From: Candidatus Falkowbacteria bacterium
Lineage (GTDB): Bacteria > Patescibacteriota > Patescibacteriia > Patescibacteriales > UBA12075
Direction of reading: 5' to 3'
DNA: 64,000 nt
Assembly: GCA_003514005.1 (NCBI GenBank)
Contig: DOSJ01000018.1
Span: forward strand, 33,105-97,104
Each line of letters begins with the position of its first letter. Position 1 is the stretch's first letter. The position numbers were made by a program, and so were the translations under genes. This document shows positions 13,309-44,568 of this stretch, piece after piece. Below the pieces are notes generated by a model. That model saw only the letters and a program-made list of their open reading frames with translations, made no database searches and was not told where the DNA came from.

Positions 13309-13397
13309 AATTGTATCATTTATAGGTATTAATATAGTTTAATTGTATCATTTATGATATAAATAGTCAATATATATACTTCAAAATGATACAATTA
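13308..13397 (-). promoter_or_regulatory. Fic promoter with three copies of a 15-16 nt operator-like site
   Basis: taattgtatcatttat at 13308-13323 and 13340-13355; the inverted copy aaaatgatacaatta at 13383-13397. Minus-strand TTGACT (13370-13365), N17, TACAAT (13347-13342) overlaps the middle site. Confidence 0.55.
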
Positions 13398-13479
13398 AGC
13401 CAAAATAACAGGATTAGAGCCGCTAGATTTAGGATCTTATTAAATAAAAATGAGGCTTTGACCTCAATTAATCTCTCTT

Positions 13480-13565
13480 GGCTCGGGGATAGGGATTCCC
13501 CGCCCGAGGCGGGTGCGCCTTTGGGCGTAGAACACGAATAAACAGGACCAGAACCTGCTGTCTTA
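13480..13565 (-). pseudogene. tRNA-Gln remnant (3' two-thirds, with a 31-nt insertion in the T-loop)
   Basis: Matches the intact gene over 13480-13498 and 13537-13565. Interrupted by cccgcccgaggcgggtgcgcctttgggcgta. The 5' acceptor and D arm are missing. Confidence 0.8.
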
Positions 13566-13621
13566 TCATTAAAAGATTATCTATGTATAGTTATTAACAA
13601 AATTTCAAACAAATAAAAAAT

Positions 13622-13793
13622 AAAAAACAGCCTTGAACACAACAAAGCCGTTGAACAAAAACTTTTCAAAGAATACGAAACCGCCAACTATCTCTATTCC
13701 CACGAACGAGATGAAAAGATGAAAAAAATTTAGGATGTTATTTTTGAGGAGATCAGGGTGATGGAAATTGAGGAGGAGATTTTGGGGATATAA
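13622..13793 (+). pseudogene. Degenerate duplicate of the ABC-F 3' end
   Basis: Aligns by eye to 11992-12170 with scattered substitutions. It has an in-frame TAG (KKI*DV). Confidence 0.8.
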
Positions 13794-13805
13794 AAAGAGA
13801 TATAT

Positions 13806-13874
13806 AAAAATACATCGGCAAGCCACACTCCGGCCTGCCACGAGATGCGCCTTGCGCATTTTTCGCGGCTCGGG
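13806..13874. repeat. 69-bp direct repeat, copy 1 (tRNA-Gln 3' flank plus last 8 nt of the gene)
   Basis: aaaaatacatcggcaagccacactccggcctgccAcgagatgcgccttgcgcatttttcgcggctcggg, with 1 mismatch to 16721-16789. Confidence 0.85.
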
Positions 13875-13910
13875 TCGTGGATGTTGTTAAAACTGAATTA
13901 AGTCAAGGTT

Positions 13911-14342
13911 TTATTGGCTATCTTTATTAATTCCAAAACCTAGCCAATTGTACCATTTCCATTGCCATGAAGACTGCCCTATTTCCAGACTCATATTCTT
14001 TGGATCAACATTAGCTTCGAATATATTTCCCTCTGCATACACCGTGCCTCTGATTTTTTGTTCATCTATAGACAGAGGAATATTGTTGTTGTCTAATTCA
14101 TGGCCTCGAAAACGATAGCAAAATTCCCCAAAATTTTTATTTTGACTGAATTCATTATTATAAGTTTTTTCTAAAAAAGTCCAAGCGTCACTTCTTGTTT
14201 TTTGCGATAAAAATAATTTATAATTAGTGCTAAAAATGTAATTCAAAACCACAATTAAACTAACAACTCCCAAAAGCGCTAAAAACACAACAACAAAAAT
14301 TGACGCACGTTTAATAATTATATTTTTAAAAATATTGTTCAT
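13911..14342 (-). CDS. Hypothetical membrane-anchored protein
   Basis: 143 aa with one N-terminal TM segment (IFVVVFLALLGVVSLIVVL). No recognisable motifs. Confidence 0.5.
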   Translation of the reverse strand: MNNIFKNIIIKRASIFVVVFLALLGVVSLIVVLNYIFSTNYKLFLSQKTRSDAWTFLEKTYNNEFSQNKNFGEFCYRFRGHELDNNNIPLSIDEQKIRGTVYAEGNIFEANVDPKNMSLEIGQSSWQWKWYNWLGFGINKDSQ

Positions 14343-14814
14343 ATTTTTTATATTTTTACTTAAATTATAAATTTCACAGAGATGTTGTTATTATATCATA
14401 GTTTTTTAGACATTACCATTCTTTAAAAATTTTGTTAAAAAAATACCGGCAGGAAATTTTTTCCCGCCGGTTCGATTCGTTTATTTGGCTATAAGCAGTC
14501 GATATCTTCTCTGTTCCAGAAGCCGGAAACAATCGTTATCCATGTATCTCCGGCAACATATTCATTATCGATAATCGTGCCACAATTGTCCGCGTCTCTT
14601 TCATTATATGTGCCACCTACAACAAGATGGTATACGCCGGGGCCGAGAGAAATGATGTAATATCCACAATAACTTGCCATGGTCTGGGTAACATACTGCC
14701 CTAAACTATTGTAGACTCTCACGACAGCATCTTGCACAAAGCAATCATTTGCACCATCTCTCCAGGCATACACAATACCATACACCCCTTGATCTGCTTG
14801 GGCAACTTCAACGG

Positions 14815-16002
14815 TTAGCGGCGTAATAGCGATGACCGCAACGGGTAATTAGTCAAAACATTTTGTGATATTTGTTCAAGAATATTTTTGTGATAAGCAA
14901 TGTGGAATGTCGTAAAAAGGTGTTGATAAAAATTATCTAGAATTATACAGGGAAATCTACATATACTCTCGGCGTTCATAATGCCGAGAGTTTTTAATTT
15001 TTCAATCGGTGATAATCCGTTCATTCCGATACCATCATTTGACCTGTTATTGTAATAAATAATCCATTTTTGCCCCTCAATGATAAAAATTGACTTAGTG
15101 TTGATTTTTTCGCCTACGGGGCAATAAAACTCTTCGTCATCGGTTCTGTGTGTTCGTTCAACTAAATTTTGTTTCCATTTACAGCCACCATGATCGTAAA
15201 CATGAGCATTGTATTGTCTAAACTGTTCATTCCATTTTTTAGTTTTAATTTTTGACATGGAACAAAATTCAGACCCGCCATCAAATTGTACATTTATTTT
15301 TGTTGATATTCCATGGCTTCTGAGCCAAAATACAACTAATTTCAAAAATTCAAATCCAAGCAGGCTGTTGCGGGCATATGACCAAGCAAGGAATCTCGTT
15401 TTAGTTTTAGCATCTACTAAAGTCCATTGATATATCGGTAACTGCTCATTGTTTTTAAATTTTTCGTAAATTTCTTTCGGTAGAGCATGTTTATCCAGTA
15501 TCTCCTTGGTGTCATATTGCATAAATTCAAATGCAGCAATTTCATCATAATTATATAATTGTCTCCGTTCACCATTGTACGTTCTTATCCGTTTGGTTTT
15601 AAGTTCACGTCTTTTAAAAACTCCTTTTATTTTTCCAATTGTAAAAACATCAGTGTCATACCCAGCTCTTTTTAAGTGCTTGAAAATTCTCTTAGCTCCA
15701 CCGTTAGTTTTTTCATGTTTTTCTAATATTATTTTTTCATTTTTAGAATCCAAACAGCGATTATGCTTTTTGGGTTTACGACTATTATTTTTTAGAAATT
15801 CAAATGTATTATTCAATAACTCTAAATTGATCTGTTTATTTGTGTTTAAATAATCTGCTATCCGAGGATTGTCTTTTATTTTTTCTTTGCATAAACGAAT
15901 TATTTGATTAACAGTGTTGTAATGGCAATTAATATGGCGAGAAATATCTCTTTGTTTTTTACCTCCAGAAAAATACAAACGAGCAATTTTAAATTTAGTC
16001 AT
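14815..16002 (-). CDS. DDE (rve-type) transposase with N-terminal HTH
   Basis: YDTKEI (D), VQFDGGSEF (D) and NLVERTHRTDDEEF (E, the ERxHRT signature typical of IS481/IS3-like integrase cores). ATG at 16002 has an AGGAGA SD. The ORF has no stop inside the IS and ends 27 nt into flanking DNA. Confidence 0.8.
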   Translation of the reverse strand: MTKFKIARLYFSGGKKQRDISRHINCHYNTVNQIIRLCKEKIKDNPRIADYLNTNKQINLELLNNTFEFLKNNSRKPKKHNRCLDSKNEKIILEKHEKTNGGAKRIFKHLKRAGYDTDVFTIGKIKGVFKRRELKTKRIRTYNGERRQLYNYDEIAAFEFMQYDTKEILDKHALPKEIYEKFKNNEQLPIYQWTLVDAKTKTRFLAWSYARNSLLGFEFLKLVVFWLRSHGISTKINVQFDGGSEFCSMSKIKTKKWNEQFRQYNAHVYDHGGCKWKQNLVERTHRTDDEEFYCPVGEKINTKSIFIIEGQKWIIYYNNRSNDGIGMNGLSPIEKLKTLGIMNAESICRFPCIILDNFYQHLFTTFHIAYHKNILEQISQNVLTNYPLRSSLLRR

Positions 16003-16265
16003 TATTTCTCCTTCTGCTTTGCAATTTTCCTTGTAAGGCATTAGAATAGGATAAAAGGGCATATATTTGTTAAATGTAATTATTAGTCTAACTACATTTT
16101 AACGCATATGTCCTTTTTTGTTACTTGAGCATTATCTTAAAATGCTTATCAATGAAAAATATTTGCCAATATCGATAATTCCAGGCATGTTTTTCCCGAA
16201 AAATCTTCAAAAATTTTCTAATTATTATTTTGTAAAATATCACATTATGTATTATACCTTCTACG
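14844..16265 (-). mobile_element. IS481-like insertion sequence (single DDE/rve transposase)
   Basis: Flanked by a perfect 15-bp direct repeat gcgatgaccgcaacg (14829-14843 and 16266-16280). Imperfect ~31-bp terminal inverted repeats share ..acat..tgtgatattt. Confidence 0.8.
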
Positions 16266-16597
16266 GCGATGACCGCAACGAACAAAAAAGCAAGAACAGC
16301 CAAAAATTTTTTCATGATTATTCTCCTTTTGCTTGAGGATTAATTGGAATGAACAAAAAAAATCCGACCGATTTTTTATCTCACCTCCTTTCTTTTTCTA
16401 ATCGGCGGATAACAATATTATAATGATATCTAAATAAAAAATAAATGTCAAATTTTTTATTTAATTATAGCCAAAAAAATAAAATAATTATAAAGAAATT
16501 ATAAAATTTTAATAAAAATCTAAAAAAATAAAATTAATTATCTAGTCTAGATATCTAGTCTAAGCCTAATTATTATTATAATTCAATTATAACACAA

Positions 16598-16624
16598 AAA
16601 CACGTCTAAATAAACGTGTTTTTT
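16598..16624 (-). terminator. Bidirectional hairpin terminator
   Basis: aaacacgt (16598-16605) / acgtgttt (16614-16621), flanked by A and T runs. Confidence 0.4.
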
Positions 16625-16720
16625 GTACTGTGGCTAGTGCGGTTATTGTTCACGAGCCGCGTAAAGAGGCTTCGCCTCCACGCGGCCGCTCAAAATGCGC
16701 AAAAACCATTAAGCAAATAA

Positions 16721-16789
16721 AAAAATACATCGGCAAGCCACACTCCGGCCTGCCGCGAGATGCGCCTTGCGCATTTTTCGCGGCTCGGG
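16721..16789. repeat. 69-bp direct repeat, copy 2 (abuts and overlaps the intact tRNA-Gln 3' end)
   Basis: See copy 1 at 13806-13874. Confidence 0.85.
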
Positions 16790-16854
16790 GATAGGGATTC
16801 GAACCCCAATAAACAGGACCAGAACCTGCTGTCTTACCGTTGGACGATCCCCGA
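16784..16854 (-). tRNA. tRNA-Gln (anticodon CUG)
   Basis: Hand-folded cloverleaf. Acceptor UCGGGGA/UCCCCGA (U1-A72 pair), anticodon stem GCAGG/CCUGU, loop UUCUGGU, T arm UGGGG-UUCGAAU-CCCUA. CCA is not fully encoded (CCG). Confidence 0.9.
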
Positions 16855-16863
16855 AAAAAAATT

Positions 16864-16966
16864 AAAATGTAAATCTCAAAATGTAAAATGACAGTTTAAA
16901 ATGAAAAATGGAATAAACAAATTTTAAATTTAACATTGTCATTTTACATTTTGAGATTTACATTTT
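16864..16966. repeat. Perfect 30-bp inverted repeat built from aaatgta-type heptamers
   Basis: aaaatgtaaatctcaaaatgtaaaatgaca (16864-16893) and its exact reverse complement (16937-16966), with a 43-nt spacer. Confidence 0.85.
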
Positions 16967-16992
16967 ACATAGATATTATAAACCTATATTCT

Positions 16993-19445: not shown

Positions 19446-19576
19446 AATAATCAATACTCAATGTCCAATATTCAATGAATATTCAATAAATTATTTTTTT
19501 CAATATCAAACACATTTCATTTGGCTATTGAAAAATTGAATATTAATTGGATATTGAGTATTGAATATTGATTATT
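19446..19576. repeat. Imperfect hairpin built from aatattgaat/attgagtat words
   Basis: aataatcaatactcaatgtccaa... pairs with ...ttggatattgagtattgaatattgattatt, leaving a 7-nt bulge. Confidence 0.6.
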
Positions 19577-20306: not shown

Positions 20307-20432
20307 ATTTTTGTTTATTTTTAGCTATTTTAAATGTTTTTTGCTTTTCTATTTTAATGATAGACTATTTTTTTGGGTTTGTAAATATAAAATTTAATAT
20401 ATAAAACTTGTGAAAAACTTGAAAAAACTCTT

Positions 20433-20566
20433 GTCATTCCCGCGAAGGCGGGAATCTCGGTAATAAAATAGATAAACAATTAATTTATATAATTTTTTAT
20501 AACAAATTTTATAGTAGTTTTGTTTTGTTCTTTTAACACCAAGATTCCCGCCTTCGCGGGAATGAC
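20433..20566. repeat. Family-1 palindromic element (arms split by an ~80-nt insert)
   Basis: gtcattcccgcgaaggcgggaatc ... gattcccgccttcgcgggaatgac. Confidence 0.85.
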
Positions 20567-20583
20567 AAAAAATGTTTAATCTT

Positions 20584-23082
20584 TTATTCCCTAAGCCTCG
20601 CTCTTCGTCTTATCTCCGCCTCTATCACATTCCGGTCTTGCCCGAATTTCAAGCGGCTAAGCGTGCGGATTTTTCCCGACATACCTTCACGAACAATGCC
20701 CGGCAAAGGGTAAAGAGTTGCCATGGAAAACGCACGGCTAGCAGTATTGTCTATCAATAGCTTTACATAAGCGGTGTATTTTTCAATATTAATCAAATCA
20801 AATTGATTGAAAACCGGGCTAAATTCTTTGGCCAGATATTCCGCGTCATCCGAACCGATCTTAAAGGCCAGCATAGTGCCGACGTTTCCAAAAACAGCAT
20901 CCTTGATCGAGGTGTCTTGTTTTTGCGAGAGTTGTCCAAGATATTGATTGGCGATAATCAAATTCAAACCGTATTTGCGCGCTTCGGAAAGAATCGAGCA
21001 GATGGAATCGGTTGTAAAATTTTGAAACTCATCAATATATAAATAAAAATCCTTTCGCGTCTCCTCGCTGATATCGGCGCGTGACAGCGAGGACATAAGG
21101 ATTTTGCCGACCAGAATCATACCAAGAAGAAACGCATTCATCTCGCCGATCCGACCCTTGGATAAATCAACCAGCAGGATTTTTTGCTTATCCATGACAT
21201 TGCGAAGATTAAAAGAGCTTTTTTGCTGGCCGATAATCGGGCGCATAGTATCGTTTGAAATAAACTGCGTTAGTTTTGATGTTACATACGGAACAACATT
21301 TGCAAGTGCCGCGTCACCACCGGCCTTTTCCGCTTCTTTTTTCCAAAAATCCACGACAGTAGGGTCAGGACATTTTTCGAGCTTCATCTTGCGAAATTCC
21401 GGGTCTGACAATATTTTTGGTATTTCCATTAGCGTAGAACCGGATTCAACATGACCCATGATAAGTAACATGGCATTGCGCATATACTGTTCAAAAATCG
21501 GTCCGCCGGTTGATTTCAGGTCATAGAGCTTGTCAAATATTTTTATCATCTCGTTGATAACAAATGTTTTCTGCTCCGGATAGCGCTCGTCAAATTCCAT
21601 TAAGTTAAGCGCAAGCGGCCGCTCCATATCTGCCGGAGAAAAAACAATAACATCTTCGGCGCGCTCCGGCGGAATCCGGTCAATGATATCGGTAATCAAA
21701 TCGCCGTGCGGATCCAAAACACAAACACCTTCGCCATTCAAAATATCTTGAATCGCCATCGAAGCGATAAGCTTTGATTTACCGGTTCCGGATTTGCCGA
21801 TTATATAGGTATGCCTGCGCCGATCCGCGCGCTTGATCCGAATATTACTTGACTGATTACGATAAACATTTTTTCCCAAAAGCAAGCCTTCGTCCGGAAT
21901 ATTTGTCGGCGCGGCGGCATGTTTGGCCATAAGCCAAAGAATATTCGGCGTTTCCGATGTTTTGAGCGGCAAATGAAACAAGCTGGCTAATTCTTCAGTA
22001 TTCAATAAAAAACCGATACCAGATTCAAAACGGCGATAAATAAAATCATTGATTAGTTTGTGCTGTTTTTTGATTATGATCTTATTATTAAAGCTGTTGC
22101 CATATTCATAACGGTTGTACTGGCTGTACGCGCTCGCCAAATTATCCAAATACAAATGAGCTTGTCCCTTGTTTTTTGCGCTGACGATAATGCGGATATT
22201 CACATCTAACCCGGCTTTGGAATTTTTTTCTTCAATCCCCTTTAACATTTCTTCTTCCATCTGCGTGAGACGCGGTGTTTGCATGTTCATTTTCTTCTGT
22301 TTATCCTCCGCCTTTTCCGGTTTTGCCGCCTTGGCTATTTCCGATAAAACCATAACAAAAAAATTCCGATCAACATTACGGAGCGCCTCTTTCATAGTTT
22401 CACCCCGATGAATGCCCGCTGTTACTTTGCCCGCCTCGCTATGCCAAGCCGGTTTCGCGCTTCTGACAAGATATTGGATGGCAAGCCCTTCGCCGTCTTC
22501 AAGTTTTGACATGACATTGATAATGGAATTCATCGGGTCGGTTTCCATCTTATTGTAAGTCTTTATCGGAAAAATCAAATTACGCTTGGTTTTTTGGTAG
22601 CCGGCGAGAACGGCAGAATCAGGGCGAAAAATATTATAATCATCAACTTCCTCGATTACAGCGCTCGGATAATGAGCGTGTACTTGCTGTTCCAGATAGC
22701 GCCCCATCTCCCGCGGAGTTACCGCGTAAAAAGCGATTTTTTTACGGCTGGCAACAAGCTCAAAAGAAAAATGATCGTTGCGTCCGAAAAACCAAGGCAT
22801 AAATCCTTTCTGCGCCCGCAAACCGCCGATGCTGGAAAAAATAGTCTCGCCTTTCGCAATCTCTTCGTGCAGCTGCTGGACCGTTACTTCGCGCTCCTGA
22901 TCACCTGGCTTGTCTTTTGGTAATTTTATCAAATAAACAACATGATCAAAAAATCTATTTTTTGCCATTATTTTTCGAATAATAATTTTTGCAATCAACA
23001 AAAAAACAAATACCGCTAATGCAACTATAATCAAAATTATTCCAGTATAAAAAATTAAATTGATGTTTAATGATTGATTCAT
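20584..23082 (-). CDS. TraG/VirD4/TraD-like P-loop NTPase with N-terminal TM anchor
   Basis: Walker A IIGKSGTGKSKL, Walker B-like LYIDEFQNF, GVCVLDPHGDL, an N-terminal TM helix, and a ~400-aa unknown domain. Confidence 0.65.
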   Translation of the reverse strand: MNQSLNINLIFYTGIILIIVALAVFVFLLIAKIIIRKIMAKNRFFDHVVYLIKLPKDKPGDQEREVTVQQLHEEIAKGETIFSSIGGLRAQKGFMPWFFGRNDHFSFELVASRKKIAFYAVTPREMGRYLEQQVHAHYPSAVIEEVDDYNIFRPDSAVLAGYQKTKRNLIFPIKTYNKMETDPMNSIINVMSKLEDGEGLAIQYLVRSAKPAWHSEAGKVTAGIHRGETMKEALRNVDRNFFVMVLSEIAKAAKPEKAEDKQKKMNMQTPRLTQMEEEMLKGIEEKNSKAGLDVNIRIIVSAKNKGQAHLYLDNLASAYSQYNRYEYGNSFNNKIIIKKQHKLINDFIYRRFESGIGFLLNTEELASLFHLPLKTSETPNILWLMAKHAAAPTNIPDEGLLLGKNVYRNQSSNIRIKRADRRRHTYIIGKSGTGKSKLIASMAIQDILNGEGVCVLDPHGDLITDIIDRIPPERAEDVIVFSPADMERPLALNLMEFDERYPEQKTFVINEMIKIFDKLYDLKSTGGPIFEQYMRNAMLLIMGHVESGSTLMEIPKILSDPEFRKMKLEKCPDPTVVDFWKKEAEKAGGDAALANVVPYVTSKLTQFISNDTMRPIIGQQKSSFNLRNVMDKQKILLVDLSKGRIGEMNAFLLGMILVGKILMSSLSRADISEETRKDFYLYIDEFQNFTTDSICSILSEARKYGLNLIIANQYLGQLSQKQDTSIKDAVFGNVGTMLAFKIGSDDAEYLAKEFSPVFNQFDLINIEKYTAYVKLLIDNTASRAFSMATLYPLPGIVREGMSGKIRTLSRLKFGQDRNVIEAEIRRRARLRE

Positions 23083-23085
23083 ATA

Positions 23086-23155
23086 TAAATTTCTAATTTC
23101 TAAATTATAATTTCTAAATAAAATAATTAGAAATTAGACATTATAATTTAGAATT
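23086..23155. repeat. Hairpin of ctaaattataat / aatttctaa modules
   Basis: ctaaattataatttctaa (23100-23117) pairs with ttagaaatt..attataatttag (23127-23151). The same modules occur at 57833-57902 and 61241-61297. Confidence 0.7.
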
Positions 23156-23162
23156 TTTCTAC

Positions 23163-25928
23163 TTATTTCTCCTCCACCAACACCGCCCGATACCTATCCA
23201 CCTTCAAATCCCCCACGTATTCATCCCCGCTCTCGCCTCCATATCGCCAGACGACTTTGAATTTTTCCGGCAAAATTATTTTGCTAAAAAATTTACTGCC
23301 AATAGTTCCCGGTTGTTTTTGCGCCATAAGCGCGTACGGGACAAGAGTTTTTTGTTCTGGATTCATAAACTCTTCAAATCTGGTTTTCAGGTCAAGCGTT
23401 CGTTCCGGCGCGACCATTTTGAATGGCAAAACATATTTGAATCTGACAACGATAGTCTCTCCCGGGTCTGCCATGCACCAATTGGCAAAAACCGTCTTAC
23501 CAGCCTCTGTATATATTTTCGTTCCGCTGTTTTCATCAATCGTTGCCTTGTTCTCGGTCAAAGCCAAATAATCGTCTTCTTGCCAACTTTCATCCGGCTT
23601 GTCAAAAAACTTTTCATCCGGAACCCGAAATCCGCTTGCCGAAATCAGCCTGCTTCCTTCCGGTACATAAACCCTTAGCCAATCAACATTGCGAACACCT
23701 GTAAAAGCATCGCCTTTTATGCCGTTGTGCCGGCGGATAATCTCCACGGTATCCGTTATTGTGCCATCTTCCGATACTTCCGTTTTATGGCTAATATCTT
23801 CATTGATCACTCTGTCGGTTTTTGCCCCGGCAATATTGGAATGCACGACCATCAAATAATCCCAAGCGGACGACCTCATCTTTCCAGTCCAAGAATAAGC
23901 ATCAGCTTTTGCCTGCAAATCGTCGTCATTAAAATATAATAAAATGTGTTTTTCGTTCAAGCTTTCCAGGGCTGAACCGGCTAATGAAAAAAATATTTCT
24001 TTACTAAGATTTTCTTTCATTACGAAGCGGATTTTTTCAAACATATCGCCGATAATTTTTTTCGGGGCATGCTGTTCTTCGCCGGTTTTCGCCGTATCAC
24101 TACTGGTAGCGTTTGCGGTCAAAGCATTTGACGAAGAGGCGGTAGTTGGCAGACTGGAAGATGCCGCTGCGTCAGCCGTAACCACCGGATCCTTAAACAA
24201 CTCCGCGCGCAATTTCAAATATTTTTGATAATCCGGATGGTCCTGCGGTTTTTGTTCAGACATTACCTGGACCAATTGCCAAAAATTTTCTGCCGTTATC
24301 GTAGCGCCGTATTTTTCGTTCATATCGAGCGGTCCAATTATTTTTAAAATACTTTCCAAAACCGTAGGCGTAAAACTGATTACGCCGTCAACGGTTGACC
24401 CGCCGCTTTTTTCATAAAACCAAGCCAGCTTCTCGGCGCTTGTCTGCCAATCCGGCCACCAATTCGCGTCCCAAAAATGCCAGAGCGGATTGACTAGCGC
24501 CAAGGGTTGCGGGGCGATTATTCTTTCTAGCAGTCCGCCTTCGGTATCATACGAACCGCCACCCGGAACATTAAGATTGATTATCTCGCCATTGCGAAAA
24601 TCAACAACTGCAAAACTGCCGATAAATCCACCGCTGGCGCGCAACTCGGCATTATTTTGAAAAACGAATAAATATCTTTTGTCCTGTTCAAAACCCAAAA
24701 AAACACGAGCCAATTTGATTATTTCAAAAAATTCTTTTATATTTCCGTTAACCAAACCGAATTTTTCCCTTAAAACGATAAATGTATCTTTGTATTCCGG
24801 CGGAAGCGCCTCTGCGTCAATTTTATTTATAACACCGTCAAGCAAAGCGGTATTGGCAATCAGTTTTTCACTTTTTGCATGCAAACTGTTTATTATCAAT
24901 TCCAGGCTTGGCTTTTCTTGATTAAATACGCTCAAAGCCTCGCTTAAATCAAAACCAATTTCCGAACTAAGCCGTCCAGCCTCCAAAATCAAATCAGCAT
25001 TTTTCGCAAGTCTTATTTCGTTGTTCGGAACGATTGAACCGACAATATTCAAAAGCACATTAAGGTCGGCAATTTCTTTTTTAGCTTCCAAAAAATTCTT
25101 ACTGGCATAAGAAAAATCCTTGCCTGCTTCGGCAAAATCCTTGTCTGTCGCGGATTGTGAGGCGGATTTTATATCTGAAATAGCGGCATTGGTCGTCCCG
25201 ATTACACGCATTTTTAGATTGTCCAAATCTTTGAATGAGGTAAAAGCCTTCAAAGGCAATATGATAACGATCAAAATAAAAATAAAATTTAAAAGCGGAC
25301 GGAAGGGCGCGATAGTTAGATTAAACGGATTAAAACGCCTAGGCGTAGGTTCTGATTTTTTAAAAAAAGAAAAAATAGATTTCTTTTCTTTTTTATTTTC
25401 TTTATTTTTGTTTACCGCAATCCCATCTTCACTTCCTTTTGTCATTCCCGCGAAGGCGGGAATCCAGGGTTTATCGCTCAATTCTGGATTCCCGCCGGAG
25501 TTTATGCCCGAATGGGTACGGGAATGACAAGAAAAAACGTTTTGAGATTTTTCAACAACAGTAGAATGTGCAGAACCAGATTCAAAAAATTGATTTTTCT
25601 TTTTAGTTTTAAATACGCTAAATATTTTAACAATAGAAATTCCAAAAAAACGAATAACAAACAAAAACACCCAGCCGAACCAAAAACAAATTTTTGAAAA
25701 AACTTTGAATAATTTATAACAAAAAACAAACAATGCCTTAAAAAGCGAAAAAAACGCCAAGCGCTTGATATGTGTTTCTTTCTTTTTGAAATGCAATAAA
25801 AACTTCTCCCAGATATTCTTTTCCGGTTCCGGCTTTGGCTCATTCGCCCTTAGCAAATCAACCAAAAAACGCGACGGCCGAGCGCTTTCATTCACATAAA
25901 CCACTTTCTTATTTTTTTTGCTATGCAT
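23163..25928 (-). CDS. DUF4012-like large membrane/extracytoplasmic protein
   Basis: YLFVFQNNAELRASGGFIGSFAVVD matches the DUF4012 signature as I recall it. N-terminal TM segments are present. The track start 25931 is TTG; ATG at 25928. Confidence 0.6.
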   Translation of the reverse strand: MHSKKNKKVVYVNESARPSRFLVDLLRANEPKPEPEKNIWEKFLLHFKKKETHIKRLAFFSLFKALFVFCYKLFKVFSKICFWFGWVFLFVIRFFGISIVKIFSVFKTKKKNQFFESGSAHSTVVEKSQNVFSCHSRTHSGINSGGNPELSDKPWIPAFAGMTKGSEDGIAVNKNKENKKEKKSIFSFFKKSEPTPRRFNPFNLTIAPFRPLLNFIFILIVIILPLKAFTSFKDLDNLKMRVIGTTNAAISDIKSASQSATDKDFAEAGKDFSYASKNFLEAKKEIADLNVLLNIVGSIVPNNEIRLAKNADLILEAGRLSSEIGFDLSEALSVFNQEKPSLELIINSLHAKSEKLIANTALLDGVINKIDAEALPPEYKDTFIVLREKFGLVNGNIKEFFEIIKLARVFLGFEQDKRYLFVFQNNAELRASGGFIGSFAVVDFRNGEIINLNVPGGGSYDTEGGLLERIIAPQPLALVNPLWHFWDANWWPDWQTSAEKLAWFYEKSGGSTVDGVISFTPTVLESILKIIGPLDMNEKYGATITAENFWQLVQVMSEQKPQDHPDYQKYLKLRAELFKDPVVTADAAASSSLPTTASSSNALTANATSSDTAKTGEEQHAPKKIIGDMFEKIRFVMKENLSKEIFFSLAGSALESLNEKHILLYFNDDDLQAKADAYSWTGKMRSSAWDYLMVVHSNIAGAKTDRVINEDISHKTEVSEDGTITDTVEIIRRHNGIKGDAFTGVRNVDWLRVYVPEGSRLISASGFRVPDEKFFDKPDESWQEDDYLALTENKATIDENSGTKIYTEAGKTVFANWCMADPGETIVVRFKYVLPFKMVAPERTLDLKTRFEEFMNPEQKTLVPYALMAQKQPGTIGSKFFSKIILPEKFKVVWRYGGESGDEYVGDLKVDRYRAVLVEEK
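25441..25528. repeat. Family-1 palindromic element inside the DUF4012 CDS
   Basis: Translated as CHSRTHSGINSGGNPELSDKPWIPAFAGMTKG. One arm is the variant gtcattcccgtacccattcgggcataaactccggcgggaatcc. Confidence 0.85.
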
Positions 25929-25956
25929 CAAAATTTTTATAAATCACTTACTCAAC

Positions 25957-26123
25957 ATTCTGAAATATATTTAATTATTTTTTTAAAATTACTCGCCCTT
26001 ACGTTTGTTACTAATAGCGTGTATGTTAAAGTAATAAATAAAATATCTTAACTTGTATTAGCATTTAAATTTTAAAAGTTTAAAGGCTTAATTTTAAAAA
26101 AATAATTAAATATATTTCAGAAT
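25957..26123. repeat. Perfect 34-bp inverted repeat flanking a 99-bp segment
   Basis: attctgaaatatatttaattatttttttaaaatt (25957-25990) and its exact reverse complement (26090-26123). Confidence 0.9.
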
Positions 26124-26239
26124 ATCGCGACTCTGATTAAGATATGTTTTCAATACAAAAGTTATCTACAACAAGTAGACTAGCTGACTATATTATACCC
26201 TAAACACACCCTCGAGCGCAAATTAAAAACCCCGGCTAA

Positions 26240-28144
26240 TTATTCTTGCCGAGGTTGTTTTTCAATATCTTTTGCTTCCACTCTTTTATTAATCCGATAA
26301 AGCGTGAAATCGCCTGTGATTTGCTTTGTTTTTGTTAGGCTAAGTCCGACATCGGCCAGGCGACGAGAGTTTAGATATTCAAAATCTTTTTCCGGCAAAG
26401 TAAAGTTGTAATAATATACCGGTAAGAGATCAACCAAATTCGCGTATTCCCTATTCATATTTTGGTCGTTAAATAAACCGACAATGACCTTGCGTTCGGG
26501 AAAAAATAGTTTGTCATGATAAAAAGTTATAATCGTAGAATTGTTTTCAGTCAGACTCATTACTTCCTGCCATTCATAACGGCTATTCATCTGCCTTTGG
26601 GCAAGAAAAATCAAACCTTCTTCCGAGCCGAAAAGGACGTAAGAAATCGAGATATAAAAAAATAAAAACAAAAAAATAAAACGCAAGGCAGTATAATAAA
26701 ATTTTTGATTTATTTTTTTTGCGAACAAGCTCAAGTTACCGGTTTTGCTTTTTCCTCTCTCACCAAACAGCTTATTAATCAAGGAAAGTACAGCACGCGT
26801 TAGGCGCATAATAAACATGGCCGCAAAAGGCATAGCGCCAAGATAAATCGGGAGCCAATAGCGAGTATAGGAATTGCCGATTGTGTGCCTGGTCTTGTCC
26901 GGATTGTCATTAAAAACCCAACTACCATAATACAGAACTAAAATAGCGGAAATCATGATAAGTAAAATTATAAACAACCATTGTTTTTTTGTCTGCTTTT
27001 TATAATTAAACAAATATGTGATAAAACCAAGGATGCCTGCCCAAAAAAGCCAGGCAAACATTTTTATAAAATACGCAATCACCATCCGTAAGCTAAGCCG
27101 CGGATGAAAACCAAAATGAAATACAATGTCTTTAATCTTATTCAATGTTTCAGAATACGCTGAGAAAGCACCCTTGATAGTCGAATGCGCCAAATCGGTT
27201 CCGGCGGCCGCGATTCCAACCAAGGACTGGTTCATCTCGGCATAACCGCTATTATAGTATGAGCCGTAAAGAATCTTGTTATAACGCATGGCCGGAAAAA
27301 GTGCGATTAGAAAAAATAAAACAAATATAAACAATCGGACAAAACCGATTTTTCGAAAATTAAACAACCACAAAAAAAACAATACCGGCGCAAGCCATAA
27401 CAACTCCGAAGCGCGCGTTATAACCGCAAGTCCAAAAAAAGCACCCGCCAAAGCGGAAAAAACAATCTCTAACAAATTTCTTTTAGCATATAAATTTCTA
27501 AAAATATTTTTTAGCCTTTTCAAAAATGACAGTTCTTTCAAACTGATCAAATATTTCTTTCGCGATTTTATTGATATGACAAAAAAATATAATCCGATTA
27601 TCACCAACACCATAAAAAGCACATTATGAAACATGCTCCTGGCAGTATAAAAAATATAAGGCGGAAAAACCGCAAGCATGCTCGCGGAAAGCCACGCATT
27701 GCTCTTGTTAAAAAGCTCCTTAATCAAAAGATAAAAAAATACGATACCCAAGGCGCCAAAAAACGGCGTAAGATATGGAATAATTTGATAGCCGAACACT
27801 GAAGCGATTTTTCCATATATCAATATTATTCCCAAAAAACTCATCGGCCGCAAAACGCCAGAATCAGAACGAACGCTCCGCGGATGCATTATGTCTTTTG
27901 TATAAAGATTATAGCTTTCCGAAAAAGAAATTTTTCCTTCCTGCGCGTACAGTTTTGTAAAAATATAATTCGCGGTTTCATCCGGCGATGCCCAACGAAT
28001 AAATTCTTGCGTTTTGCCCTTGTCATCAATATATTTTTGCGTATAATAATTAAAACTGCTTGTGCCCAAAAAAAACAAGACGCTTAAAAGAATAACCATC
28101 AAGAATTGCCAATTATTTTGAATTTTTTTAATTATTATTATCAT
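26240..28144 (-). CDS. Polytopic membrane protein, possible GT-C (ArnT/PMT-like) glycosyltransferase
   Basis: More than 10 TM segments and an N-terminal loop ASPDETANYIFTKLY. The track start 28177 is TTG and lies inside a repeat; ATG at 28144. Confidence 0.4.
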   Translation of the reverse strand: MIIIIKKIQNNWQFLMVILLSVLFFLGTSSFNYYTQKYIDDKGKTQEFIRWASPDETANYIFTKLYAQEGKISFSESYNLYTKDIMHPRSVRSDSGVLRPMSFLGIILIYGKIASVFGYQIIPYLTPFFGALGIVFFYLLIKELFNKSNAWLSASMLAVFPPYIFYTARSMFHNVLFMVLVIIGLYFFVISIKSRKKYLISLKELSFLKRLKNIFRNLYAKRNLLEIVFSALAGAFFGLAVITRASELLWLAPVLFFLWLFNFRKIGFVRLFIFVLFFLIALFPAMRYNKILYGSYYNSGYAEMNQSLVGIAAAGTDLAHSTIKGAFSAYSETLNKIKDIVFHFGFHPRLSLRMVIAYFIKMFAWLFWAGILGFITYLFNYKKQTKKQWLFIILLIMISAILVLYYGSWVFNDNPDKTRHTIGNSYTRYWLPIYLGAMPFAAMFIMRLTRAVLSLINKLFGERGKSKTGNLSLFAKKINQKFYYTALRFIFLFLFFYISISYVLFGSEEGLIFLAQRQMNSRYEWQEVMSLTENNSTIITFYHDKLFFPERKVIVGLFNDQNMNREYANLVDLLPVYYYNFTLPEKDFEYLNSRRLADVGLSLTKTKQITGDFTLYRINKRVEAKDIEKQPRQE

Positions 28145-28174
28145 AAGAAATACGAAGTTTTGTTTTTTTTCAAA

Positions 28175-28293
28175 CAAATCTTTGATATCTCTTATTTTTT
28201 CTCCGAGGACTGTCTGAGCCTAAATAAAGATTGGTCGCCCTCGCGGTGTGGGCGAGTTCCGCAGGAGGAAAAATAAGAGATATCAAAGATTTG
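28175..28293 (+). repeat. Hairpin element with conserved core, copy 2 (different arms)
   Basis: Arms caaatctttgatatctcttattttttctcc (28175-28204) / ggaggaaaaataagagatatcaaagatttg (28264-28293). Core is gaggactgtctgagcc...gagttccgcag with an internal GC hairpin. Confidence 0.75.
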
Positions 28294-28312: not shown

Positions 28313-30307
28313 ATGACAGCGATATGGAAATCATGTATAATCAACTATATGAACACATCAATCGATAAACTAATAAAATACGCTCTGATTTGCCTTAACC
28401 TAATCATTATTTGGGGCGCTTTTGTATATCGGGTATTTAGCCTTGGAATTATCGGTATTATTAGTGTTTTAATCTTAGCATTTTTATCATTTTTCATTAT
28501 ACTTTATATATTTAATAAATTCAACCAAGAAACGATTGATTTAAAAATTAAAAAAATAAATGAAATAAATCAAAAAAAATACGTAATTGCCGATTATGCC
28601 CTGCCATTTCTATATGTTATTCTTATGCTTTGCTGTACACATTTTTTGTACAGCTCCGGCACGACAGACGCGATAATATCGCCCTGGCAAAAAGTACCAT
28701 ACTATTTCTTTGCCGCTTTTTTTTCCGCCTCGCTTTGTCTCGCGGCCATAATTCTAAGGAACAAACCGTTAGCCAAGGCGTTGATTTTTTTGCACTACCT
28801 TTTGATTTTTTCCGTAGCGGTTTTTATTTACAAGATCGGCTATGGCTTTGACCCGTTTATTCATCAAGCAACGGAAAAACTGATAAGCCAAACCGGCGCC
28901 GTCGAACCGAAACCTTTCTATTATCTTGGACAATACGCGCTTATTACAATAATCAACAAACTATGCGCTATTCCGATTGTATGGCTGGACAAACTTTTGG
29001 TTCCGGTTTTAGCGGCATTTACTTTGCCTGCCGCGCTTTTTTTAACCTTAACAAAATGGCTGGAAAACAAAAACATCATGCTCCTAACGATTTTCTTATT
29101 GCCTATTTTACCTTTTTCTTTTTTTATCGTCACCACACCCCAAAATCTGGCCTATCTTTTCCTTATCCTGGTTCTGATTTTCGGCTTGCATGCCAAAAAC
29201 CGCTTAGACCTTCTGAATATAATTCTATTGTCTTTATCCGCTTTTGCCGTCCATCCCCTTGCCGGAATCCCGACAATCCTTTTCGCGCTTCTACTACTTG
29301 TTTATTATGCCGGTAAACAGCAATTCAAAAATAATTATTATCGGATTATTTTCTTACTAATGGCGATTGCCCTTCCCTTAGCCTTTCTTTTTATCCAACA
29401 AAAAACGGGCATAAACGCTACAGACAGCACTTCTTCAATCGGTTCTGCCATAGACTGGCCGGAAATCAAAATCCCGGATAAAGAAAACGCAATCTTGAAT
29501 ACAGTCTATCTTTTTATTTTTAATTTTAAACTACTGTTTTCACTACTGGCGATATCCGGTCTGACTATTATTTTAAAAAACCGAAAAGAATGCAAAGTTC
29601 TCTTCTTGTATCTTTTTTCCAGTCTGGCAATGTTTATCTCGTATCTGATCAGCTCCCGACTTTCATTCGGCTTCCTGATCGAATATGAACGCAGTGATTA
29701 TAATAATCGGATTCTTTTGATTGCCGCAATTTTTCTTTTCCCGTTAGCTTTGTTGGCGATTCACGCTTTTCTACTTAAACTGATGAAACAAAATAAAATT
29801 ATCATATCTATTTTTATTGTCTTTTTTAGTTTTCTTTTAACAACATCACTTTACGCTTCATATCCGCGTTTTGATAATTATCATAATTCCCACGGTTATT
29901 CGGTAAGCAAAAATGACATTCTTGCCGTAGAATGGATAAATAATGACGCAAAAGGCGATTATATTGTCCTAGCCAATCAGCAAGTCAGCGCGGCTAGCTT
30001 AAAAACATTTGGTTTTAAAAAATATTTCAAAGGAAAGGGTGATAATGCAGAAGACATATTTTATTACCCAATCCCAACCGGCGGCCCATTGTATCAACTG
30101 TATTTGGATATGGTTTACAAAAAGCCGACGCGCAGTACAGTACTATCCGCTCTTGACCTAACCGGAGCAAAAACCGGATATTTTGTCCTGAATAAATACT
30201 GGTGGGCATTCCCAAAAATCGCTGCAGAAGCGAAGCTTGAGGCGGATTCTTGGCAGGAGATTGGTGAGGGAGAGATTTTTGTTTTTAAATACGAGTTAGG
30301 TGATTAG
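28313..30307 (+). CDS. Polytopic membrane protein with C-terminal soluble domain
   Basis: 664 aa, about 14 hydrophobic segments. No motif recognised. Confidence 0.5.
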   Translation: MTAIWKSCIINYMNTSIDKLIKYALICLNLIIIWGAFVYRVFSLGIIGIISVLILAFLSFFIILYIFNKFNQETIDLKIKKINEINQKKYVIADYALPFLYVILMLCCTHFLYSSGTTDAIISPWQKVPYYFFAAFFSASLCLAAIILRNKPLAKALIFLHYLLIFSVAVFIYKIGYGFDPFIHQATEKLISQTGAVEPKPFYYLGQYALITIINKLCAIPIVWLDKLLVPVLAAFTLPAALFLTLTKWLENKNIMLLTIFLLPILPFSFFIVTTPQNLAYLFLILVLIFGLHAKNRLDLLNIILLSLSAFAVHPLAGIPTILFALLLLVYYAGKQQFKNNYYRIIFLLMAIALPLAFLFIQQKTGINATDSTSSIGSAIDWPEIKIPDKENAILNTVYLFIFNFKLLFSLLAISGLTIILKNRKECKVLFLYLFSSLAMFISYLISSRLSFGFLIEYERSDYNNRILLIAAIFLFPLALLAIHAFLLKLMKQNKIIISIFIVFFSFLLTTSLYASYPRFDNYHNSHGYSVSKNDILAVEWINNDAKGDYIVLANQQVSAASLKTFGFKKYFKGKGDNAEDIFYYPIPTGGPLYQLYLDMVYKKPTRSTVLSALDLTGAKTGYFVLNKYWWAFPKIAAEAKLEADSWQEIGEGEIFVFKYELGD

Positions 30308-30310
30308 GTG

Positions 30311-30382
30311 CTTAGGTACTTGGGGCATAGGGGTTTATAATCAAAATTCTATTTAAAAATCCCTATGCCCCAAGTACCTAAG
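30311..30382. terminator. 22-bp perfect hairpin between convergent genes (probable bidirectional terminator)
   Basis: cttaggtacttggggcataggg (30311-30332) / ccctatgccccaagtacctaag (30361-30382), with a T-run shortly after. Confidence 0.5.
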
Positions 30383-30446
30383 TACCTAAAAATTTTTTTA
30401 CAAAAAAAACAGCGGTTGATTCAAGCCGCTGCTTTTTATATAAAAC

Positions 30447-33099: not shown

Positions 33100-33320
33100 T
33101 TTTCCTTTTGATCCTGCTCTATAAAATATAATTATCTTTATAGATTAAAAAATTAACCTTTTTACTTTCAAGTTTTTTGCCTTTTTATTTTTTTTGTCGG
33201 GAAGCAGCCTCTTTATTATATTTTGTTATAGAGGCATTGCAAGGAGATAAAAAAAATAAAAAGGCAAAAAACAGTTTGCTAGTAAATTTTAAAGATAACT
33301 ACAAGGAAAATTATAGAGTT
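33100..33320 (-). promoter_or_regulatory. Structured leader upstream of rpsB-tsf
   Basis: 24-nt arms gttttttgcctttttatttttttt (33172-33195) / aaaaaaaataaaaaggcaaaaaac (33249-33272) enclose the hairpin gcctct..agaggc. The outer segments ctctataa (33117) and ttatagag (33311) are complementary. Confidence 0.4.
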
Positions 33321-34083: not shown

Positions 34084-34119
34084 AATCCCTCCTATAAATT
34101 TTTTTAAAAACTTTTTTCT

Positions 34120-34189
34120 ATCATTTCCGCTTAGGTGGGAATCCAGATTAGAATAATTTACCCTGGATTCCCGCCTACGCGGGAATGAC
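34120..34189. repeat. Family-1 palindromic element (one degenerate arm)
   Basis: ...ggtgggaatccag...ctggattcccgcctacgcgggaatgac. Confidence 0.75.
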
Positions 34190-34226
34190 AAAAAAGAAGT
34201 GAGTTTTCTAAAAAATCATCAAAAAA

Positions 34227-38176: not shown

Positions 38177-38237
38177 ATTTTTCTTGCTTATTATTAATTA
38201 ACAGGCTCCAAAAAGGCTTACCTGTCTAAAACAATAC

Positions 38238-38266
38238 ACTGTATCACACTTTTTCGATTATGTCAA
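38238..38266 (-). promoter_or_regulatory. Sigma70-like promoter (cassette shared with 44569-44597)
   Basis: Minus strand: TTGACA (38266-38261), N17, TACAGT (38243-38238). Confidence 0.55.
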
Positions 38267-38306
38267 GGGTTTTTTGCGATAATTATTTATTTTGGCTAAA
38301 ATTGAA

Positions 38307-39636: not shown

Positions 39637-39689
39637 ATAATAAGTATGTTTAAATTTTTAATTTGAGACTTTAAAAAATCTATCCATTT

Positions 39690-39759
39690 GTCATTCCCGC
39701 GAAGGCGGGAATCCAAGATTTGATGCTTGTAGCTGGATTCCCGCCTTCGCGGGAATGAC
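39690..39759. repeat. Family-1 palindromic element, canonical copy
   Basis: Perfect 26-bp arms gtcattcccgcgaaggcgggaatcca / tggattcccgccttcgcgggaatgac with an 18-nt spacer. Confidence 0.9.
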
Positions 39760-39838
39760 AAGAAAAAAGTTTTCTTTAAGTCTCAATTTAAAATTAATCT
39801 ATATTCGGATTTTACCCTAGCAAATTAGCTAATAATTG

Positions 39839-41050: not shown

Positions 41051-41062
41051 ATTTATCCACTT

Positions 41063-41210
41063 GTCATTCCCGCGAAGGCGGGAATCCAGGATTAAAAGCA
41101 TCCTGCATTATTTACTCCTAAACTATTAAAAAATATTCAAATATTTTCCCCTGGATTCCTGATCATTTAATATCTATATTCCCTACGGGGTTAGGTGTGT
41201 CAGGAATGAC
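41063..41210. repeat. Family-1 palindromic element (expanded, degenerate right arm)
   Basis: gtcattcccgcgaaggcgggaatccagg ... cctggattcc ... caggaatgac. Confidence 0.7.
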
Positions 41211-43043: not shown

Positions 43044-43056
43044 ATTTTTATAACCT

Positions 43057-43209
43057 GTCATTCCCGTGCCCTGCTGGGTATAAACTCCGGCGGGAATCTT
43101 GGTTTTTTATTATCGAGTCTTTTTTCTTACGATTATATTTAAAAATTTATTATTTATTTTTTTGAATCCACTATTCTATCACCGAGATTCCCGCCTTCGC
43201 GGGAATGAC
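43057..43209. repeat. Family-1 palindromic element (variant left arm, ~90-nt insert)
   Basis: gtcattcccgtgccctgctgggtataaactccggcgggaatc ... gattcccgccttcgcgggaatgac. Confidence 0.75.
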
Positions 43210-44542: not shown

Positions 44543-44568
44543 ATATTTTCTGGAAATATTAATAAACC

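Follow-up and report, generated by a model that had tools for sequence, protein, structure and literature searches.

A foldback repeat with a conserved structured tip in Candidatus Falkowbacteria and many other bacterial phyla

The 64,000-nucleotide stretch of the Candidatus Falkowbacteria contig DOSJ01000018.1 that is analyzed here (the window) holds, between two divergent genes, a 119-nt hairpin whose short core recurs at two other positions of the window. What kind of element keeps the inside of a hairpin constant and exchanges the outside? The hairpin, termed copy 2, belongs to a widespread, previously uncatalogued foldback repeat of many bacterial phyla. Its parts and those of copies 1 and 3 are as follows, with P1 being the long outer stem and P2 the inner hairpin.

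28175–28293, plus strand: copy 2, whole unit, a 119-nt hairpin with 30-nt arms
28175–28204, plus strand: 5′ arm of P1 of copy 2, caaatctttgatatctcttattttttctcc, pairing with 28264–28293
28205–28217, plus strand: 5′ core of copy 2, GAGGACUGUCUGA, of which G3, G4, and A5 pair with UCC of the 3′ core
28218–28253, plus strand: enlarged inner hairpin P2 of copy 2, closed by GCC/GGC and made up of an AT-rich insert and a UCGCCC...GGGCGA hairpin
28254–28263, plus strand: 3′ core of copy 2, GAGUUCCGCA
28264–28293, plus strand: 3′ arm of P1 of copy 2, ggaggaaaaataagagatatcaaagatttg, complement of the 5′ arm
1688–1793, plus strand: copy 1, whole unit, its bounds being where homology with copy 3 stops
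About 1695–1724 and 1755–1783, plus strand: P1 arms of copy 1
1725–1737 and 1745–1754, plus strand: 5′ core and 3′ core of copy 1
1738–1744, plus strand: P2 of copy 1, degenerate, GCCGCGA
52493–52625, minus strand: copy 3, whole unit
52588–52576, minus strand: 5′ core of copy 3
52575–52542, minus strand: P2 of copy 3, GAC...GUC with an AT-rich loop
52541–52532, minus strand: 3′ core of copy 3, GAGUUCCACA

Read along the plus strand, copy 2 starts with one 30-nt arm and GAGGACTGTCTGA; a 36-nt segment that GCC/GGC closes comes next, and GAGTTCCGCA and the complementary 30-nt arm complete the unit. The arms form 29 Watson–Crick pairs and one U·G wobble; they are, thus, 97% complementary and not perfectly so, as a preliminary description of this sequence had put it. 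The wobble is a pair on the plus strand only, and the folding energy amounts to −58.0 kcal/mol on this strand versus −52.9 kcal/mol on the complement, with z-scores of approximately −8 on both. A long intergenic hairpin by itself is not rare here, since approximately 50 local inverted repeats (≥18 nt, within 130 nt) are found in the window (e.g., 30304–30389, 16863–16967, 1323–1411, 19446–19576, and 25930–26150); such hairpins, whose arms are unique, are commonplace in this Patescibacteria genome. The common core of the three copies cannot be chance. The string GAGGACTGTCTGAGCC is found at 1725, 28205, and 52588 (minus strand) with one mismatch, i.e., three matches versus a chance expectation of 0.01, and GAGTTCCGCAG at 1745, 28254, and 52541 (minus strand) with one mismatch, three matches versus 0.41. 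Both the hairpin and the sharing of its motif, as first described, are therefore real.

The core is the sole part that copy 2 has in common with copies 1 and 3, in agreement with the preliminary description. Copies 1 and 3 are 92–95% identical to each other over approximately 106 nt, arms included and P2 excluded, with unrelated flanks and a homology that begins about 7 nt before the stem. The variable segment between the core halves (from ...GAGCC to GAGTTCC...) has a length of 4, 33, and 31 nt in copies 1, 2, and 3, respectively; of the lengths first given (4, 35, and 35 nt), only that of copy 1 stands. The segment of copy 2 does contain the GC hairpin described for it, which takes up about 22 of the 33 nt, the remainder being the AT-rich insert. 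In copy 1, the inner hairpin is mostly lost with GCCGCGA left, and copy 3 shows two substitutions in the core (GAGAC and CCACAG) and an AT-rich P2. A search for a second occurrence of the copy 2 arm, as expected for an insertion into a pre-existing palindrome, found none within the window. A covariance model built from other genomes detects only copies 1–3 in the window, scoring 40.6, 36.9 (copy 1), and 32.3 bits (copy 3) with the next best hit at 9.7 bits; herein, P2 of copy 2 is aligned as GCC...GGC with a 26-nt insertion.

How far the motif extends beyond this genome was assessed with the scan pattern GAGGACTGTCTGAGNC-N(4–34)-GAGTTCC in species-representative genomes, one per species, which yielded at least 120 loci in at least eight phyla. 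The taxa among the loci listed are Rhodocyclales, Burkholderiales, Cellvibrionales, Pseudohongiella, Myxococcota, Spirochaetes/Leptospirales, Eggerthellaceae, Clostridia/Lachnospiraceae, Bacteroidales, Hyphomicrobiales, Saccharibacteria, and Uhrbacteria. The same layout is found in every copy: a variable P1, GAGGACUGUCUGA, the small hairpin P2, GAGUUCCGCA, and P1′, with a unit size of approximately 100–250 nt. Among 155 distinct units, the 13-mer GAGGACUGUCUGA is exact in 138 and the 10-mer GAGUUCCGCA in 139. Over 137 copies, the core hardly varies, with 23 fixed bases at the hairpin tip, and is retained in genomes from 38% GC to 70% GC while both stems turn over fully. In viral contigs, the 14-mer of the 5′ core matches 65 places, of which only 3 have the whole motif. 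A BLAST search with the consensus unit against plasmids, phages, and Escherichia coli gave no full match, which is a weak test, as the stems vary and only copies with the same P2 are detectable in this way. A small satellite-like array is seen in a gammaproteobacterial genome (L082, 222–1111), where three tandem units with a spacing of about 415 bp are followed by a fourth, inverted unit.

The constancy of the core is matched by the constancy of pairing around it. Three helices were scored: the four innermost pairs of P1, a GGA/UCC helix formed between the core halves, and P2. In a first alignment of 82 sequences, 94.4% of the cells are paired, versus 76.1% in shuffles and 33–56% with the partners slid, and both sides have changed in 136 cells versus 44 in shuffles. 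The covariance model built from this alignment retrieved 137 units in 100 sources. In the 137-unit alignment, 94.6% of the cells are paired (73.7% in shuffles) and both-side changes occur in 244 cells (75 in shuffles); 11 of 12 pairs show double changes, and all three helices covary strongly. The register of the GGA/UCC helix is fixed by the compensatory variant GAGCAC with GAGUUGC, which is present in at least six copies from different genomes. Pairing is likewise kept by compensatory changes among Rhodocyclales P2 variants and between orthologous copies of two Saccharibacteria species (loci L032 and L077). P1 has a mean length of 26 bp and falls into 90 unrelated arm clusters, whereas P2 is 7–36 nt long across the family, with a GC-rich stem of 3–8 bp. 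The picture of a fixed core around a variable inner hairpin, closed by a stem whose pairing survives sequence turnover, was first drawn from three copies and holds over 137.

The fixed bases lie on both sides of the GGA/UCC helix. Below it, the conserved non-helical strands are 5′-GA and 5′-GCA; above it, they are 5′-CUGUCUGA and 5′-GAGU, CUGUCUGA being the strand of the internal loop. UGA and GA beside P2 can, judged from their sequence, form tandem G·A pairs, and the variants U11 to C and C10 to U would be compatible with U11·G3′ and C10·U4′ contacts.

Is this a structure that moves? The window has three copies in 64 kb, and an Eggerthellaceae lineage carries six copies of one foldback of about 215–250 nt, each with unique flanks. 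Neither these six copies nor copies 1 and 3 show a visible target-site duplication at their ends. The site of copy 2 was compared across relatives ranked by the identity of a flanking protein. In the nearest one (94% identical, L186), the element is present with the same 3′ arm save for one substitution, and the contig breaks inside the element. In relatives with 73% and 57% identity (L187 and L188), the whole hairpin is missing at the orthologous site, the latter retaining the divergent gene pair, whose spacer measures 40 bp and contains no palindrome. Hence, orthologous loci have or lack the hairpin as a whole unit. Because arms are shared without flanks between copies 1 and 3 and among the Eggerthellaceae copies, whole units are absent from orthologous sites, orientation is random, and head-to-head dimers are frequent (see below), the unit is probably a mobile, in any case dispersed, repeat. 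The earlier statement that the structure is to be expected of a structured RNA or protein-recognized hairpin "rather than a simple MITE" (short for miniature inverted-repeat transposable element), therefore, went too far.

The arrangement of units relative to genes was determined from rough gene calls. Single units lie between genes in 47 of 55 cases; 17 are sense and 14 antisense in tandem gene contexts, 16 have convergent and 2 have divergent genes around them. Relative to the flanking genes, neither orientation is preferred. Some units are found inside operons, such as between livG and livF (L051). Adjacent pairs are head-to-head (−,+) in 30 of 36 cases and 100–400 bp apart, in Beta- and Gammaproteobacteria as well as Saccharibacteria. 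Families of repetitive extragenic palindromes (REPs) of the GTAG and CGTC types are mostly located downstream of genes, with head-to-head dimers predominant, and are occasionally embedded in longer palindromes (PMC3733652). Placement and dimer arrangement of the motif match these descriptions. In the two Saccharibacteria loci named above, the 131-nt spacer between two head-to-head units (5890–6021 in both L032 and L077) is conserved between species and contains GAUGAGCAUAUGAG, which resembles a GAGCA-N-CGCAG box found upstream of the units in Proteobacteria; there may, hence, be a conserved architecture of larger extent.

Copy 1 runs antisense to the genes on either side. Copy 3 has a Mur ligase gene on one side and an ABC transporter gene on the other and shares the orientation of these two. 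Copy 2, as had been stated from the outset, sits between divergent genes, a position that is rare among the units:

26240–28177, minus strand: gene of a PMT_2-type membrane glycosyltransferase, flanking copy 2
28313–30307, plus strand: gene of a hydrophobic protein with no Pfam match, flanking copy 2

The best promoter-like site of the plus-strand gene (ATGACA-17-TATAAT, 28313–28341), a strong one, is located downstream of the copy 2 hairpin. This site falls inside the listed start of the ORF (28313–28351 region); from comparison with the orthologue in L187, the true start is probably the ATG near 28351 (MNTSIDKLIKYA). With this start, copy 2 would be located upstream of the promoter and not in the 5′ UTR.

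Which strand folds, and as which nucleic acid? P1 mismatches counted on the sense strand (the one reading GAGGAC), with one unit per arm cluster for the 90 clusters, comprise 76 G·T versus 18 A·C, a ratio of approximately 4:1. In 121 of 155 units, P1 taken by itself has its more stable form on the sense strand. From this asymmetry and this stability it follows that one specific strand, the GAGGAC strand, folds; the asymmetry is a strand preference, not proof of enzymatic use. The loops of P2 are triloops in 63 of 99 cases, among them C-GCA-G (18), C-GAA-G (15), and C-GTA-G (3), and GNRA tetraloops are rare. C-GNA-G is the classic extra-stable DNA mini-hairpin. A REP that is cleaved in vitro by its own TnpA has an 8-bp stem and a 3-nt loop, and TnpA_REP cleaves at CT dinucleotides beside the hairpin, on one strand only (PMC8266576). 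The invariant unpaired strand of the motif reads A-CT-GT-CT-GA. In Beta- and Gammaproteobacteria, the 11-nt box of the 3′ core recurs twice on the same strand: in the form GAGCAACGCAG 15–35 nt upstream of the core, and in the form GAGTAGCGCAG 10–15 nt downstream of the core, 3′ of P1, where a 5-bp hairpin follows. These boxes occur in 53 and 49 of 144 units, respectively, versus a background of 0.017. As the GAGTAGCGCAG box is on the sense strand, a GTAG-type tag reads on the very strand that the asymmetry marks as folding. The transcription-independent orientation, a mobile unit with neither promoter nor terminator, the triloops, the strand of the GTAG tag, and the CT dinucleotides favor DNA. 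RNA is favored by the invariance across phyla, the compensatory changes in resident copies, and the units inside operons, and the 4:1 wobble ratio suits RNA equally. On balance, we tentatively infer that the strand may fold as DNA rather than RNA.

What, then, would such a DNA hairpin be for? The reading tentatively preferred here, with a chance that we put somewhat short of even, is that of a non-autonomous repeat of REP/BIME kind (BIME, bacterial interspersed mosaic element) that folds as ssDNA and whose tip is read in trans by a structure-specific enzyme. The unit would consist of a long P1 of any sequence and a fixed tip module: GA, the GGA strand, CUGUCUGA, a GC hairpin with a triloop, GAGU, the UCC strand, and GCA. 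Whenever the DNA becomes single-stranded, the GAGGAC strand would fold, and the trans-acting enzyme would read the invariant tip. The most plausible candidate reader would be an HUH/Y1-type nuclease–ligase such as the REP-associated TnpA, cutting at CT beside the hairpin; the complete hairpin, a non-autonomous unit, would be copied or moved in this way.

Several observations weigh against this proposal. REPs normally co-evolve with their transposase and differ between lineages, whereas the 23-nt module stays the same from Patescibacteria to Proteobacteria, as would be more typical of a catalytic RNA or the ligand of a universal host factor. Compensatory changes in orthologous copies imply selection on resident copies and not only at transposition, the wobble bias would fit RNA equally well, and the orientation test rests on gene calls that are rough for GC-rich loci. 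No protein recurs beside the units across phyla, as 3474 clustered ORFs gave only syntenic housekeeping families, and a crude motif scan of the loci and the window revealed no Y1-like ORF. A partner was also sought with a consensus-like query of TnpA_Y1 subclass 2.1, leading to PF01797 proteins from Azonexus, Dechloromonas, and Zoogloea, of which four loci (L189–L192) were examined; the covariance model did not find the motif in these four loci. The TnpA_Y1 genes of Azonexus and Dechloromonas (PF01797, approximately 237 aa) are flanked instead by inverted repeats of AATAGGGGWCAGACC (GGGGWCAGACC), located in L189 at 2930–2960 and 3720–3775 and likewise present in L190, L191, and L192; the enzymes were, thus, rejected as partners. 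Repeats of this GGGGWSAS type have already been described for Y1 subclass 2.1 genes (PMC3733652, PMC6006769). The core has only GGWCTGTC in common with the reverse complement GGTCTGTCCCC, an overlap that is a weak lead at most. Furthermore, no REP-associated tyrosine transposase (RAYT) gene bracketed by repeats was seen in 120 loci of at most 8 kb each or in the window, and no long autonomous version with core halves far apart in 190 loci. As to the TnpA_Y1 genes themselves, tandem GGTCTGTCCCCGGTTTTC copies follow the gene downstream in L189, and many of the contigs carrying such genes are only about 1–2 kb long, as expected if repeats break assemblies.

The strongest rival is a structured RNA, which we consider possible and on the whole unlikely. 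Herein, the sense transcript would fold into a rod, the internal loops of which form a protein-binding or catalytic (e.g., self-cleaving) tertiary motif composed of tandem G·A pairs on P2, a pyrimidine-rich bulge of 5–6 nt, and GA/GCA beneath the GGA/UCC helix; the spread of copies would be that of a selfish or regulatory RNA element. Approximately 23 invariant bases across phyla combined with three covarying helices are the signature of a ribozyme or riboswitch core, and wobble pairs are concentrated 4:1 on one strand. UGA-helix-GA offers the tandem sheared G·A pairs known from K-turns and the hammerhead core, orthologous copies show compensatory substitutions, units inside operons are hence transcribed, and a head-to-head dimer ensures one sense copy for either direction of transcription. 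The numbers of sense and antisense units (17 versus 14) and a mobile unit devoid of a conserved promoter or terminator speak otherwise. The same applies to the GNA triloops of P2, as functional RNAs usually have GNRA or UNCG tetraloops, and to the 26-bp P1, which would keep cleavage products together. The core misfits the hammerhead, the hairpin ribozyme, and the canonical K-turn (bulged U; 5-nt instead of 3-nt loop), and no ribozyme of Rfam matches even at E ≤ 10.

Alternatively, the host could keep a generic hairpin, such as a bidirectional terminator, a stabilizer of mRNA 3′ ends, or, in line with proposals made for REPs, a site for gyrase or a nucleoid protein, without a dedicated enzyme and with the core as a frozen accident of common descent. 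We regard this as improbable. It would account for the ratio of 16 convergent to 2 divergent positions, i.e., the enrichment downstream of genes, in a genome rich in long intergenic hairpins. The string CGUUUUU comes after copy 2; most copies, however, have no such U-run. There is no need for a generic hairpin to keep 23 unpaired or mismatched bases invariant across genomes of 38–70% GC, and the strand asymmetry is unexpected for a site in double-stranded DNA.

Least probable is an ordinary MITE with arms as terminal inverted repeats for a DDE transposase and a centre as filler. The foldback shape, the multiple copies, and the presence or absence at orthologous sites would suit it, whereas conservation is inverted (unrelated arms in 90 clusters, invariant centre), no target-site duplication is visible, and neither a transposase near units nor a cargo-bearing long version was found in the loci searched.

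REP-type repeats have so far been treated as lineage-specific. The module described here is larger, has two loops, and stays identical from Patescibacteria and Spirochaetes to Proteobacteria and Actinobacteria; so much constraint implies that its reader is very conserved or that the nucleic acid itself carries out chemistry. It is conceivable, although doubtful, that the tip represents a new nucleic-acid fold present in at least eight phyla: a small RNA, either catalytic or recruiting a protein, whose tandem G·A core is hammerhead-like and sits on a long duplex, or the recognition module of a phylum-spanning superfamily of ssDNA repeats together with an enzyme that reads the tip and not the foot. 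The motif is short enough for RNA or DNA synthesis, several carriers, among them Dechloromonas hankyongensis, Thauera sp. 2A1, and Zhongshania aquatica, are cultivable isolates, and the covariance model allows a census in any genome. Complete genomes with the motif include those of Azonexus sp. IMCC34839 (NZ_CP150631.1) and Dechloromonas sp. (CP059264.1). The units break short-read assemblies, as the contig of L186 that ends inside one demonstrates, and deserve masking or annotation in genome-annotation pipelines and RNA-motif searches.

The window contains further repeats. A hairpin at 33172–33272 has 27-nt AT-rich arms (96% complementary) and a 47-nt centre, GGGAAGCA-GCCTCT...AGAGGC-ATTGCAAGGA; it may be a further family built on the plan of conserved tip and free arms. 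The region 11983–16880 looks like a small insertion or duplication beside a tRNA, judged from its repeats: tRNA-Gln(CTG) at 16782–16854 (minus strand) has a partial copy at 13523–13609, a 73-nt repeat (13802–13874 and 16717–16789) is 97% identical, and a 136-nt repeat (11983–12118 and 13615–13750) is 88% identical. These tRNA-Gln-linked repeats bracket a Fic-domain gene (12232–13308) and two ORFs with no Pfam match. AT-rich palindromic repeats of TTCTAA/ATTTCTAA units are intergenic at 23081–23159, 57801–57934, and 61229–61321. A 43-nt repeat ending in TTTTGTCAAGG is present at 1617–1659, 38230–38272, and 44561–44603; on the reverse strand, it is like a TTGACA −35 box upstream of minus-strand genes and may, thus, be a shared promoter. 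The second repeat family of the window, TTGTCATTCCCGCGAAGGCGGGAATCCAG, is of the CGTC-1 (TGTC-tagged) REP type of Di Nocera et al. 2013 (PMC3733652). Its copies are often head-to-head dimers, and two lie within longer, locus-specific, AT-rich palindromes (39656–39793 and 20414–20585):

20428–20456, 20540–20568, 25436–25530, 34114–34195, and 39685–39767: copies of the TTGTCATTCCCGCGAAGGCGGGAATCCAG family
41058–41097, 43056–43098, 43171–43214, and 48547–48630: further copies of the TTGTCATTCCCGCGAAGGCGGGAATCCAG family

The question remains where the motif stands among known systems. At the gathering threshold, Rfam 15, with its hammerhead, twister, twister-sister, pistol, hatchet, hairpin, and HDV-like families, has no match in the window or in 15 loci, in line with the initial failure to recognize a known ribozyme or riboswitch. 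At E ≤ 10, the window copy and canonical copies retrieve only chance models of plant and animal miRNA hairpins, which respond to any long hairpin. A full-text literature search with the core strings returned only unrelated primers, and no description of the motif was found in the literature on new ribozyme classes and HUH repeats.

A number of candidates were rejected individually. The hammerhead needs CUGANGA/GAAA, where the motif reads CUGUCUGA/GAGU, with unfit register and junction type. By hand, registers and junction types do not fit the hairpin ribozyme, the canonical K-turn, sarcin–ricin/loop E, or group II domain V either. 5S rRNA (CCGAACUCAGAAGUG versus the reverse strand), 4.5S RNA, RNase P, and the tRNA-Asp anticodon loop (CUGUC) show short similarity and no structural agreement. 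On the reverse strand, the spacing of GGAACTC...TCAGA varies and is not that of a sigma-E-type promoter. For the neisserial DNA uptake sequence (CTGTCTGAA), copy number and context are wrong. As to an intrinsic terminator, the U-run is not consistent and no terminator was found at copy 2, and a coding sequence is excluded by a P2 length that is not a multiple of three.

Hammerhead stem II and the non-canonical stem of the K-turn both carry sheared tandem G·A pairs beside a helix. The motif is like them in that CUG...GA-helix-GA places two sheared G·A pairs on the inner hairpin; it is unlike them in having a two-way and not a three-way junction, a 5-nt loop, a bulged U in the supported register, and no Rfam score.

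Integron attC sites are imperfect hairpins of approximately 60–140 nt that are recognized as folded ssDNA of one strand, with a conserved structure and unpaired bases that give specificity. They conserve the base of the stem (R″/R′ boxes, RYYYAAC/GTTRRRY) and vary at the tip, whereas the motif does the reverse. With its conserved part at the wrong end, the motif has no R″/R′ boxes across the family, and no cassette arrays or integrase are found near units; one Thauera subfamily carries TAACCGCGG/CCGCGGTTAGC at the stem base, which do not fit GTTRRRY. The origin hairpins of HUH-Rep systems, i.e., CRESS (circular Rep-encoding single-stranded)-DNA viruses and rolling-circle plasmids, have an invariant loop on a freely covarying stem; this loop is kept over very distant lineages owing to its nicking by a catalytic HUH enzyme. 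They occur once per replicon beside the rep gene, whereas the motif is chromosomal and multi-copy. From MITEs with a DDE transposase, the motif differs by arms that are unrelated between families.

The REPs come closest. Two broad superfamilies are distinguished by their tag, GTAG and CGTC, the latter with no known dedicated transposase (PMC3733652). The CGTC/TGTC REPs (Di Nocera et al. 2013; dRS3, RPE-4/6) resemble the motif in consisting of a tag, a GC hairpin, and a short tail, in being spread over several phyla, and in forming mostly head-to-head dimers; the layouts are TGTC-ATTCCCGC-GAAG-GCGGGAAT-CCAG for the CGTC REP and cTGTC-TGA-GCCC-GAA-GGGC-GAG-TTCCGCAG for the motif. In CGTC REPs, the tag is located at the foot of the stem; in the motif, cTGTC is invariant, but TGA, which may form non-canonical pairs, is placed between tag and P2. 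A CGTC REP has an 8–9-bp stem starting with two A–T pairs, a 4–5-nt loop, and a CCA tail. The motif, unlike it, has a GC-rich P2 of 3–8 bp with 3-nt loops in 63 of 99 cases, tandem G·A flanks, a UUCC tail, and in addition a second helix (GGA/UCC) and the long P1.

Compared with the GTAG REPs, a typical REP is a 20–40-nt palindrome with a conserved GTAG tag at its foot and a conserved stem, whereas the motif spans 100–250 nt with a free stem and a conserved two-loop tip. The GT[AG]G tag at the 5′ foot of the REP hairpin is absent from the universal core; GAGTAGCGCAG is found in only about one-third of the units, all of them proteobacterial. REPs are lineage-specific and RAYT-associated; the core of the motif is identical across phyla, and no RAYT association appears in the 120 loci or the window. 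In its defining features, the motif thus fails to agree with GTAG REPs, CGTC REPs, attC sites, DDE-type MITEs, and every Rfam family. The likeness to the REP/BIME/REPIN (REP doublet forming hairpins) systems of RAYTs lies in short, intergenic palindromic repeats that are mostly downstream of genes and form head-to-head dimers (PMC3733652). It extends to one active strand, to internal mismatches or bulges in recognition, to CT cleavage by the hairpin, and to a chromosomal, largely vertical mode of existence (PMC3733652, PMC8266576, PMC6006769). In Proteobacteria, the flanking GAGTAGCGCAG box with its 5-bp hairpin is shared as well. Inverted dimers and positions outside genes are found for the motif in 30 of 36 pairs and 47 of 55 single units, respectively, and the use of one strand only is paralleled by its strand preference (76 versus 18; 121 of 155). 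The motif is, hence, best filed as a foldback repeat of the REP/BIME kind in which a structured tip, and not the foot or the stem, is conserved.

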